From a virus (Duplodnaviria; Heunggongvirae; Uroviricota; Caudoviricetes), in IMG/VR virus record IMGVR_UViG_2526164619_000013, positions 1 through 4,911 of that record: a stretch of DNA of 4,911 bases. The stretch is one strand, 5' to 3'. The position numbers and the translations under genes are program-made. Below, piece after piece: positions 1-4,911 of the stretch. Within the stretch, counting starts at the first letter, position 1. Every line of letters begins with the position of its first letter. The notes under the pieces were generated by a model that was not told the DNA's origin, searched no databases, and worked only from the letters and a program-made list of their open reading frames with translations.

Positions 1-158
1 TCACCAGTCAAAACTTTTCACCAGCGTCAGCTCGCCAGCATTACGCATCGGTACAATAAATGTTTCCTGTTTCTCATTGACCGATCCTTCATCGGTGATC
101 AGCGTCAGTTGGGCGGTGGTTAATTCCATTTCGCTGCGCCCACCATAGTAGTTGATAT
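1..158 (-). pseudogene. 3' fragment (about 52 codons plus stop) of an unidentified gene whose 5' part is replaced by the IS911-like element
   Basis: The minus-strand frame is open from the IS boundary at 158 to a TGA stop at 3..1 (plus-strand tca), giving ...NINYYGGRSEMELTTAQLTLITDEGSVNEKQETFIVPMRNAGELTLVKSFDW*. The ORF-track entry 1..237 is a read-through that begins inside the IS inverted repeat. The sequence looks protein-like, but I cannot assign a family. Confidence 0.35.
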
Positions 159-1365
<1,207 letters not shown>

Positions 1366-1370
1366 ATCAC

Positions 1371-1406
1371 CTCTGTTCAGGTGGCCAAATTCAGTGTGCC
1401 ACTTCA
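1371..1406. repeat. IS911-like left terminal inverted repeat (IRL)
   Basis: Reverse complement reads TGAAGTGGCACACTGAATTTGGCCACCTGAACAGAG, the partner of 159..194. It is immediately followed (minus-strand sense) by GAGGTGAT-ATG. Confidence 0.85.
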
Positions 1407-1666
1407 GTGTGGCTGAAGCTGAAGTGCGACCGCTGATTGGCGATGTGGTGGCGATGGACTGCGCCGAAGATGTTTACCGTACCGCGCTGGAACAGACGGG
1501 GATCGATATCCAGGGTATTCACCCCGGTGCGTACCGCAGCATGGTGAAGTTTGCCGTTGAGCAGAAGCAGACGGCCAAATCCTCTCCCCGTGTGGCGATG
1601 GATCAGGCCAGCGCATCGACGTTTGCGGCAGATTTCCCCGGTGCAAAACTGAAACGAGGTTACTGA
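1407..1666 (+). pseudogene. 5'-truncated phage gene (C-terminal about 86 codons), possibly the scaffold/protease gene that precedes the head genes; truncated by the IS911-like element
   Basis: The frame is open from the IS boundary to TGA at 1664..1666 (...[85 protein letters not shown]). Its stop lies 1 nt before the next ATG, and the RBS of the next gene (GAGG 1656..1659) is embedded in its 3' end, so it is the upstream member of the operon. The track ORF 1334..1666 begins with a TTG inside the IS and is an artefact. The function is inferred from position only. Confidence 0.55.
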
Positions 1667-1667
1667 T

Positions 1668-2150
1668 ATGAATACTTTTCAGACACACATGAACCAGTAC
1701 CCGGCACCGGGTATTCCGGGGGCGTTTGCCAGTGCTAACCCTCATGCCTCGTATGTGGCGGGAGATGGCGGGCTGATTACCGGCCCTGACGGGCTGGTAA
1801 TTGCCCGGTTTGCCTGGGTAACCAAAGGTGTTGCCGCTAATAAGGGGGCCGGCGCACCGGCGGGTTTTGTTCCTCGTGACGGGCAGGCTTCCATTGTGGA
1901 ATGGCTGGCCGGGGACTCGAACACCATTTATCCGGGGCGTGAATGCACCCTGATGGTGTCGGGGGATTTCTGGGCGCTGACCACCACTACTGCGACGATC
2001 GGGCAGAAAGTATTTGCCTCACTGGCCACCGGGGAGATAGCCACGGGGGCGGCTGGCACCTCGATGGCGGGGTTTGTCGAAACCTGGTTTTCCGTTGCCA
2101 GCGCTGCGGCGGCAAAAGAAGTCATTAAGATCAGTACCTGGAGCAAATAA
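1668..2150 (+). CDS. Phage head-module protein, 160 aa (possible decoration or minor head structural protein)
   Basis: ATG at 1668 with GAGG 8 nt upstream. It is Gly/Ala/Thr-rich and its stop overlaps the next start (TAATG at 2148..2152). It sits immediately upstream of the putative major capsid gene, as a decoration gene does in lambda-like head modules. The functional assignment is inference from synteny and composition. Confidence 0.75.
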
Positions 2151-3178
2151 TGAATAAATTTAAACAGCATTATGCGACGGCAAGTCGTGACTACGGGATT
2201 ATTCTTCCCGGAGCACAGGCTTATTTGCCGAAGGAGTACGCCGCCGATTACGGACTTGCGATGGACGCGCAGCCTGCGCTGGTCACAGCGGCTAACAGCG
2301 GTATCCCTGCGTATTTCACCAATTACGTTGAGCCAGAACTGATCCGCGTGCTGGTGACGCCGATGAAAGCCGCTCAGATTCTGGGCGAAACCAAAAAAGG
2401 TGACTGGACGACACTGTCGGCACAATTCCCGATTGCAGAATCTGACGGGGAGGTGAGTTCCTACGGGGATTACAGCAACAACGGGGTGGTAAGCGTAAAC
2501 GTCAACTGGGTACCGCGCCAGAGCTATCACTTCCAGACCTTCACCGTATGGGGCGAACGTGAGCTGGAGATGTACGGCGCAGCCCGTATTGGCTGGGCGG
2601 CAGAGCTGAACGTGGCGTCAGCACTGACGCTGAATAAGTTCCAGAATAAGTCCTATTTCTACGGTATTGCCGGACTGACGAACTACGGTTTGCTGAATGA
2701 TCCGTCGTTATCTGCACCAATCACCCCGGATACCGTTGACGGTAAACTGAAGTGGGACGACAAGGACGGACAGGGCGTGTATGACGATATCGTGAAACTC
2801 TTTAAGCAACTGGTGAAACAGACTAACGGCCATATTGAGCGTACCGACAAAATGAAACTGTGCATGTCGCCGCTGGCAGAGGTGAACCTCACCAAAACAA
2901 ACCAGTACAGGGTTAACGTGTCCGATCTGCTGGCGAAAAATTTCCCGGCGATGACCATTGAAACGGCGGTGGAATACACCTCTGACGCTGGCGAGCTGGT
3001 ACAGCTTATCGCGGAGCGTCTGGGTGAACAGGATACAGGCTATTGCGCTTTCACTGAAAAAATGCGCGCCCATGCGGTAGTGGCAGATACGTCTTCCTGG
3101 AAACAGAAAAAATCCGCTGGTACCTGGGGGGCGATTATTCGCCAGCCGCTGGCGTATGCACAAATGCTGGGGGTGTGA
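2150..3178 (+). CDS. Putative phage major capsid protein, 342 aa
   Basis: ATG at 2150 overlaps the upstream stop, with GGAG at 2140..2143. It is the largest ORF of the cassette and sits where the major capsid gene sits in lambda-like head modules (about 340 aa expected). It has no obvious similarity by eye to lambda E, HK97 gp5, P2 gpN or T7 gp10, so family membership is unassigned. Confidence 0.8.
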
Positions 3179-3181
3179 GTT

Positions 3182-3529
3182 ATGGCTGAAATGGTAACAG
3201 TGGGCTGCAAACTGCCGAACGGTCTGGTGCTGGAAGTGGGTCAGAAACGGGTTCAGGTGGCAGGCTGGCGGAATAATGCGGTTAAAATTGTGGGGGGCTA
3301 TGGTCTGACGCAGGTCGATAAGGTGTTTTTTGACGCCTGGCTGGCGGAGCACGGACAGCAACCTTATGTGAAAAATGGCGTTATTTTTGCGCAGGATAAG
3401 GCGAACAGTGCAGTCTCGCAGGCTACGGAGCAGAAAGCCGTTAAATCCGGCCTTGAACCGCTGCCGCAGAAAAATCCGGCTCCGGGCGTTAACCGCAATG
3501 ATGAAGTGATGGGTAAACCTCAGGAGTAA
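3182..3529 (+). CDS. Phage head-module protein, 115 aa (possible head-tail joining or DNA-packaging accessory protein)
   Basis: ATG at 3182 lies 3 nt after the capsid stop, with a G-rich SD (GGGGGTG 3169..3175). It continues the co-oriented coupled operon. Function unknown. Confidence 0.75.
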
Positions 3530-3534
3530 ACGCT

Positions 3535-3990
3535 ATGGGTACGGTGACGTTTGACTGTCGGATGTTTGTCAGTCTGTACCCGGAGTTTTCCACGGTGACA
3601 CCGGAGCTACTGACGGCGGTGTTTAACCGGGCGACCGCGTTGTACCTGGATAACACGGACGACAGTCCGGTTACCGACCTGAAGGAGCGGGAACAGCTTC
3701 TGTTCCTGCTGGTTGCGCATCTGTGCGCATTGCGGGGGCTGGGAAACGGGAGAGACGGGCAGGCTGGTCTGGTGGGGCGTATCACCAGTGCGTCGGAAGG
3801 TTCTGTATCGGTATCGGTGGATAATAGCGGCAGTAATGATGCGTCGTGGTGGTATCTCCAGACCTCCTGGGGTGCTGACTACTGGCAGGCGACAGCGCCA
3901 TACCGCTCAATGCAGTATCATTCCGGGGGGGCACCTTCGCGATATCCGGGGCATTATTACCGGGGATACGGGAGGGGGCGTCGATGGTAA
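3535..3990 (+). CDS. Phage head-module protein, 151 aa, with a Gly/Arg/Tyr-rich C-terminal tail
   Basis: ATG at 3535 with AGGAG at 3522..3526 (8-nt spacing). The N-terminal about 75 aa look globular; the C-terminal about 75 aa are low complexity (…[82 protein letters not shown]). The stop at 3988..3990 overlaps the next gene's ATG at 3984. Confidence 0.7.
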
Positions 3991-4568
3991 ATAAAGTCAC
4001 AGGTGGCAAACAGTTCCGGCAGAAGCTGAAACAGGTTGCCGCGAACCTTTCATTGGGTAAAAAACTCAAAGTGGGTTTTCTTGAGGGAGCAACTTACCCT
4101 GACGGTACGTCAGTGGCTTATATTGCCGCAGTTCAGGAGTTTGGTGGAAGAGCGGTCATACCCGCCCGTGAGCAGACGCTCCACTTTCGCTATAACGAAA
4201 AAACGGGAGAAACCGGGCACCGCTTTGTCAAAGCCGGTAAAGGGAATTTTGTTCAGGATGTGGTTATTCCTGAGCACACGGTCACCATTCCCCCCCGTCC
4301 GTTCTTCCGTAAGATGATCGAACATAAAAGTCCCGAATGGGGCGAAAAAATGGCGACCTTATTACGGGCGAATGATTTTGATACTGCGACCGCTCTGGTG
4401 TGTATGGGAGAACATATCAAAGGGCAGTTGCAGATGTCTGTTCGCGACTGGGAAAGTCCGCCCAACGCTGCATCCACTGCCCGGCAAAAGGGTTTTAACA
4501 ACCCGCTTATTGAAACCGGACATATGATGGACAGCGTTGATTATTCTGTAGACGGGGGCAAAAAATGA
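3984..4568 (+). CDS. Phage head-module protein, 194 aa (possible head completion or head-tail connector protein)
   Basis: ATG at 3984 is preceded by GGGAGGGGG (3970..3978) and overlaps the upstream stop. Its TGA stop at 4566..4568 overlaps the next ATG (ATGA). The position corresponds to head-completion genes in lambda-like head modules. Function is inferred only. Confidence 0.78.
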
Positions 4569-4602
4569 ACTTTCACGGTATTGTTTCCGGCGCAGTACGT
4601 CG
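4565..4602 (+). pseudogene. Next operon gene, truncated after about 12 codons ([12 protein letters not shown]) by the IS1 insertion
   Basis: ATG at 4565..4567 overlaps the upstream TGA (ATGA coupling). The reading frame runs directly into the IS1 terminal inverted repeat at 4603 and then hits a stop inside IS1. Confidence 0.5.
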
Positions 4603-4625
4603 GGTAATGACTCCAACTTACTGAT
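4603..4625. repeat. IS1 terminal inverted repeat (insB-proximal end)
   Basis: The 23-bp GGTAATGACTCCAACTTACTGAT has the characteristic IS1 end. The insB stop codon (4620..4618) lies within it. Confidence 0.85.
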
Positions 4626-4911
4626 AGTGTTTTATGTTCAGATAATGCCCGATGACCTTGTCATGCAGCTCCACCGATTTTGAGAACGACAGTGACTTCC
4701 GTCCCAGCCTTGCCAGATGTTGTCTCAGATTCAGATTATGTCGCTCAATGCGCTGAGTGTAACGCTTGCTGATAACGTGCAGCTTTCCCTTCAGGCGTGA
4801 TTCATACAGCGGCCAGCCATCCGTCATCCATACCACGACCTCAAAGGCCGACAGCAGGCTCAGAAGACGCTCCAGTGTGGCCAGAGTGCGTTCACCGAAG
4901 ACGTGCGCCAC
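4618..4911 (-). CDS. insB: IS1 transposase InsB, C-terminal 97 codons (N-terminus beyond the window edge)
   Basis: Translation (V)[96 protein letters not shown] is near-identical to the IS1 InsB C-terminus, with a handful of substitutions relative to the E. coli K-12 IS1 sequence as I recall it. The leading M in the ORF track is an edge artefact. Confidence 0.9.

Follow-up and report, generated by a model that had tools for sequence, protein, structure and literature searches.

In the stretch of DNA analysed here (the window, 4,911 nt in its entire length), a genuine phage gene for a 121-aa neck protein is very probably truncated at position 4603 by an IS1 element, and the phage DNA in which it lies very probably represents a relic bounded by insertion sequences on both sides. 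The gene was severed when an IS1 end was joined to it at 4602|4603, leaving a stump of 38 nucleotides (4565-4602). This stump forms the right-hand edge of a 3.2-kb head and neck relic, whose left-hand edge consists of an element of the IS911 type joined to chromosomal yfaP (Table 1). The locus has thus arisen by the decay of a prophage in several IS-driven steps in a genome of the Shigella/EIEC type. We assume that IS1 arrived by the action of its transposase, either by direct insertion or by an intramolecular transposition giving rise to an adjacent deletion. Exact pseudogene coordinates are thereby available for a collar-like neck gene of which 12 out of 121 codons are left, and the surrounding head genes are to be read as parts of an IS-bounded prophage relic rather than of a nearly intact prophage.

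Table 1. Features of the window with their coordinates and the evidence for their assignment.
Feature	Position	Strand	Evidence and remarks
yfaP 3' end (C-terminal remnant)	1..158	-	stop codon at 1-3; 99.4% identical to yfaP; Pfam YfaP_C
IS911-type (IS3 family) element	159..1406	-	orfA 1033-1365 (HTH_Tnp_1), orfB 167-1006 (rve); ends TGAAGTGG.../...CCACTTCA
DUF2213/Pa193_gp24 gene, 3' remnant (~86 codons of 449 aa)	1407..1666	+	aligns to 9425-9684 of intact prophage locus L001, the end of CDS 8335-9684
Capsid cement/decoration protein, 160 aa	1668..2150	+	PF23982, E = 6e-33; PF22758, E = 2e-19
Major capsid protein, 342 aa, lineage-specific variant	2150..3178	+	position in the module; weak match to PF09950; exact sequence only in this lineage
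115-aa virion-module protein	3182..3529	+	phrog_2085, E = 2.5e-45
Head-to-tail adaptor homologue (DUF4054/E217_gp27-like)	3535..3990	+	PF13262, E = 2.8e-17; C-terminus frameshifted
194-aa neck protein (tail completion/Neck1 type)	3984..4568	+	phrog_222, E = 1.3e-51; without Pfam match
Collar-like neck gene, 5' remnant (12 codons and 2 nt of 121 aa)	4565..4602	+	comparison with intact prophages, PHROG, Pfam, tblastn
AGTACGTCG	4594..4602	.	9 bp expected to be duplicated at the far IS1 end after a simple insertion; inferred from the 8-9 bp duplications of control copies
IS1 right end	4603..4911	-	terminal repeat from 4603, 3' part of insB with stop codon at 4618-4620; the element runs past the window
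GGTAA	4603..4607	.	5 bases found both at the IS1 end and in the intact target gene

The IS1 terminus in the neck operon

The ATG at 4565-4567 overlaps with the TGA stop codon (4566-4568) of the preceding 194-aa ORF in an ATGA tetranucleotide, as read directly from the sequence, and a GGGGG run at 4554-4558, 6 nt upstream of the ATG, represents a plausible ribosome-binding site. The frame starting there comprises 12 full codons (4565-4600) and two additional nucleotides (4601-4602) before IS1 begins at 4603. The string at the meeting point of the frame and the element is GGTAATGACTCCAACTTACTGATAG, and the terminal repeat of IS1 reads GGTAATGACTCC… from 4603 onwards. Past 4602, the chimeric frame continues with seven IS1-encoded codons (R-V-M-T-P-T-Y) up to a TGA at 4622-4624, which adds up to 19 codons in all.

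The exact position of the IS1 end was confirmed by comparison with nine independent 768-bp copies of the element contained in the fetched loci, every one of which starts or ends with GGTAATG. Direct target duplications of 8-9 bp bracket six of these nine control copies and fix the boundary to the base, and the terminal inverted repeat GGT(A/G)ATG... is present at the element boundary in the window, with 4603-4625 corresponding to the ends of the nine copies. The segment from 4603 to 4911 yielded a 99.4% identical alignment with a 768-bp IS1 copy of E. coli SCU-316, which extends 16 nt into the flank. The coding sequence of InsB adjoins the right end of the element (ORF 4618-4911 on the minus strand); its called product matches the DDE_Tnp_IS1 family (PF03400), and the matching records are annotated as IS1 family transposases. 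The IS1 transposase genes converge on the phage operon. The initial annotation had proposed that the frame opened by the ATG at 4565 runs straight into an IS1 inverted repeat at 4603 after 12 codons, and both the sequence and the comparison with the IS1 copies bear this out.

A prophage relic between IS911 and IS1

Prophages in several E. coli chromosomes share 99.66% identity with the phage-derived part of the window (1407-4602; alignment 1404-4607). The intact relative used for comparison is located at ~825.6-872.4 kb of the FDAARGOS_943 chromosome (NZ_CP065615.1; loci L001, L025 and L026) between yebY and pphA, far away from yfaP. It is a mosaic composed of a lambdoid integrase, early region, tRNA cluster and lysis genes together with an E217-type contractile-tail virion module, ends with the type III secretion effector gene ipaH3, and has been disrupted by IS600 and IS1 as well. 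With ipaH3, IS600 and IS1, this 99.7% identical relative belongs with the ipaH-carrying lambdoid prophages and prophage remnants of Shigella and EIEC, whereas the window retains only 3.2 kb of the head and neck module, relocated beside yfaP. In E. coli CFSAN029787 (NZ_CP011416.1), the region of the neck genes and the DUF2213 region match at two places (4.69 Mb and 0.54 Mb), which are separated by about 0.8 Mb round the circular chromosome; this suggests either two related prophages or a single one that has been split.

At the left boundary, the phage DNA adjoins an element which shows the features of the IS911 group within the IS3 family, namely orfA and orfB in a -1 frameshift arrangement and TGAAGTGG terminal repeats, and is annotated as IS3-like element of the IS911 family. 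The other side of this element is fused to yfaP, a core chromosomal gene present in 5375 of 5426 E. coli genomes. The element is flanked by ATT on the yfaP side and by GTG on the side of the phage DUF2213 gene, and the two flanks are of unrelated origins. Because of these unrelated flanks and the lack of a 3-bp duplication, we regard the left boundary as a rearrangement or deletion joint: it is demonstrably chimeric and goes back to an inversion, a translocation or a deletion. The IS911 junction is reproduced in three contigs of the same lineage (L012-L014). An exact look-up of the 70-aa truncated product predicted at this boundary gave no match, and both IS junctions were absent from all complete E. 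coli genomes, plasmids and phage records searched.

The complete window is contained exactly in AKMY01000053.1, a 34-kb draft contig of assembly GCA_000268165.1, with the order ompC-rcsD-rcsB-rcsC-yfaP'-IS911-phage relic-IS1. By exact look-up of the frameshifted 151-aa adaptor and of the 342-aa capsid variant, we found 13-14 contigs carrying these lineage-specific proteins; the remaining contigs of the lineage are at most 3.3 kb long and break at the two insertion sequences.

The initial annotation took the IS1 element as a precise inactivation point for the downstream morphogenesis genes that would make the prophage defective. This holds for the interrupted gene, which is truncated exactly at 4603, but not for the prophage as a whole, which is already a 3.2-kb remnant, so that the arrival of IS1 is not the decisive event. 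IS1 is not what made the prophage defective, because only this 3.2-kb island is present, its left end is cut within the DUF2213 gene, and the adaptor gene is frameshifted. The latter lesion is a lineage-specific insertion of a single G at position 3974 within a G-run, which is apparent by comparison with all intact relatives and results in a product of 151 instead of 152 aa with an altered C-terminus. In phage E217, the C-terminal tail of the adaptor inserts between portal subunits, and the frameshift at 3974 may represent a second inactivating lesion. Genes for terminase, portal, lysis and regulatory functions are not adjacent to the relic. Because a late promoter, an antiterminator region and all functions for replication, lysis and tail formation are not adjacent either, the genes that are left in the relic most likely form a silent cargo.

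Among the five insertion sequences that have expanded in Shigella and EIEC are IS1 and IS911; in these bacteria they interrupt genes and bring about deletions and rearrangements, events that are the norm there (PMC7373316). The case described here shares with the known disruptions by the 768-bp IS1 in these bacteria the same terminal repeat, the 3' sequence of insB, the truncation of a coding sequence at the canonical terminus and the co-occurrence of IS911, and we saw no mechanistic difference from them. The IS1 truncation is a routine and already known kind of IS-driven prophage decay. Its importance beyond annotation is small, as it adds one more example to the IS1- and IS911-driven decay documented for Shigella and EIEC.

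Nature of the junction at position 4603

We consider it rather probable that the collar-like gene no longer continues on the far side of IS1 and that 4603 marks the boundary of a deletion or rearrangement. Deletions and rearrangements by insertion sequences, being the norm in such genomes, speak for this reading. The rearrangement joint at the left edge of the relic argues for it too, and likewise against a simple recent insertion of IS1, which is quite possible and to which we give the lesser credence. After such an insertion, the right half of the prophage would be disrupted by the element at a single point and be continuous apart from that: the far end of IS1 would be followed by an 8- or 9-bp repeat of AGTACGTCG, then by the remaining 107-109 codons of the collar-like gene and by the genes for terminator, sheath, tube and baseplate. 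The predicted far junction is ...GGCAGCAT(C/T)ACC-AGTACGTCG-GGTAAATCCC..., which would appear in sequencing reads as ...ACC-AGTACGTCG-GGTAAATCCCTTTACAGACG, and the rest of the gene, including AATCCCTTTACAGACGCGCTGG, would be retained. This is how full-length IS1 copies usually look, judging from the duplications at six of the nine controls, and the identity of the phage segment to intact prophages is still so high (99.66%) that its decay must be recent. Even the joint at the left edge could be accommodated, since an inversion between two IS911 copies could bring the whole right half of the prophage beside yfaP without any loss.

We looked for the products of a simple insertion at the DNA and protein levels. 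Scans for the IS1 left end followed by 0-30 nt and the continuation of the gene were empty in the genome, viral and metagenome contig collections. This silence is only weakly informative and says little against a simple insertion, because exact scans for the near junction, i.e. that between phage and IS1 at 4603, were likewise empty in the same collections. The first of the far-junction scans covered only the ...CATCACC variant of the IS1 end, whereas the closest IS1 copy ends with ...CATTACC, and both variants were allowed in the later ones. In addition, nine predicted far-junction products were submitted to an exact look-up, which included duplications of 8, 9 and 10 bp, both variants of the IS1 end (for the 9-bp case), and edge-partial forms as well as forms starting at TTG, ATG or an internal GTG codon. 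Eight of them were absent from the protein collection, in which the source assembly and no fewer than ten samples of the lineage are represented, and the ninth, a 74-aa form with an internal start, was recorded only from two unrelated complete genomes. The lack of any predicted hybrid or truncated product from the lineage argues against a simple insertion as a weak negative, as an exact look-up misses any protein that differs by one amino acid or starts at a codon that was not anticipated.

The first five bases of the element, GGTAA, are shared with the uninterrupted target. The intact allele reads ...GTACGTCG|GGTAAATCCC, i.e. ...GCAGTACGTCG-GGTAAATCCC, and the window reads ...GCAGTACGTCG-GGTAATGACTCC. 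Because GGTAA fits both the target and the IS1 end, the alignments to intact prophages reach up to 4607, the first 14 rather than 12 residues of the frame match the intact protein, and the junction is ambiguous by five bases. An identity of this length between target and IS1 end is expected by chance in about 1 of 1000 cases. In the control copy of locus L026, three matching bases (GGT) follow the target duplication. It appears unlikely that the identity has a cause other than chance, be it that IS1 prefers targets similar to its own terminus or that microhomology assisted the joining. Were this so, the position of IS1 ends in Shigella-type genomes would carry a systematic uncertainty of a few bases, and the target choice of the element could in part be predicted.

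The same five bases are the observation from which an origin of the joint without any transposase could be argued, namely by illegitimate recombination between the collar-like gene and a pre-existing downstream IS1 mediated by GGTAA as microhomology. We found no further evidence in favour of such an event and consider it very unlikely: the joint lies exactly at the canonical IS1 terminus, as expected if transposase acted, whereas slippage or end joining would hit this point only by coincidence. Because of this exact position, the action of transposase is still the simplest cause of the joint. A likeness of the window flank at 4586-4602 to the flanks of two other IS1 copies (CCGGCGC-GTACG) was considered as well and is probably a selection effect. 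These flanks are located in unrelated genes (L018, 901-915, a haemagglutinin pseudogene; L023, ~600-617, pgaA) and head a list of ~72,000 places sorted by alignment length.

The source contig ends 17 nt past the window, i.e. 326 nt into IS1 (the window itself ends 309 nt into the element), and assemblies are least reliable at such positions inside an IS1, which could make one suspect an assembly error near the terminus of this draft contig. Such an error is highly improbable, since contigs that were assembled independently from three other samples (L012, GCA_049894805.1; L013, SRR066117; L016, ERR200337) and extend 26-73 nt into IS1 show the identical phage-IS1 junction; we therefore rule out a mis-assembly. 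The junction is genuine and fixed in a small lineage, and it provides a clean lineage marker that is present in the source contig and in the three contigs from other samples.

The interrupted gene and its E217-type context

In intact E. coli prophages, this ATG likewise overlaps the preceding gene by 4 nt and is the start of an annotated 366-nt CDS, which codes for a 121-aa product. The gene is present in the intact relative (L001) and in all ten loci (L002-L011) that were returned for the neighbouring 194-aa protein. The exact 121-aa protein occurs in 638 contigs, and its 90% cluster contains 266 members spanning E. coli and Salmonella. It matches PHROG 1912 ("head protein") over its full length (E = 1.2e-52, residues 1-121 on positions 1-120 of the 122-position profile), and homologues were detected by tblastn in 167 phage records. 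Klebsiella phages come first, at ~62%, followed by those of Pantoea, Burkholderia, Acinetobacter, Xanthomonas and others. The initial annotation had assigned the ATG at 4565 to a genuine operon member that is translationally coupled to the 194-aa gene, and the same overlap and the 121-aa gene in the intact prophages support this assignment. Its N-terminal peptide was to be searched for among phage proteins, and homologues do begin at this residue, as all 15 matches listed align from residue 1. That the 12-codon ORF arose fortuitously and no gene was interrupted, for which only its shortness in the window would speak, has a negligible probability in view of the same start, overlap and sequence leading to a 121-aa product in intact prophages, the full-length PHROG match and the homologues in 167 phage records.

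As to the function of the protein, one source gives it the name "phage collar protein". Its match to the Pfam family of the E217_gp28 collar (PF22755; 26.3 bits, E = 8.5e-06, residues 21-105 on positions 12-93 of the 110-position model) narrowly misses the gathering threshold of 27 bits, and we therefore speak of a collar-like protein and do not assign it to the family. A sequence search of the PDB by phmmer yielded only artefactual matches of the 121-aa protein to de novo designed repetitive TIM barrels, and nothing for the 194-aa protein. The TIM-barrel matches of the respective product of L001 (12582-12947) reach E values down to 2e-06, which are summed from several sub-significant repeats and represent a score artefact in small proteins. 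Because of the narrowly missed threshold and a PDB search returning artefacts only, we use the label of a probable collar or neck protein. As judged from sequence comparison, the interrupted gene probably codes for the hexameric collar located between the head-to-tail adaptor and the tail terminator. In E217, the gp28 collar is a small β-barrel with an N-terminal helix.

Past the 121-aa gene, the intact prophages continue with genes for tail terminator, sheath, tube and baseplate. The gene order is the same as in E217, with cement, capsid, DUF4054 adaptor, a protein of ~120-130 aa, terminator, sheath (E217_gp31_N) and tube (E217_Gp32), and the part from the adaptor to the tube runs in parallel to gp27-gp32. 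In the cryo-EM structure of E217, gp27 forms a dodecameric head-to-tail adaptor, with gp28 as hexameric collar beneath it and gp29 as gateway or terminator (PDB 8FVH, PMC10329688). The position of gp28 between adaptor and terminator is matched by the interrupted gene, with one extra gene intervening. This extra gene, coding for the 194-aa Neck1-type protein between the adaptor and the collar-like protein, distinguishes the module from that of E217. The interrupted gene matches the E217_gp28 model over 82 of 110 positions. Further differences are the lack of detectable pairwise similarity to PDB chains and the lambdoid character of the early and lysis regions in the intact prophage.
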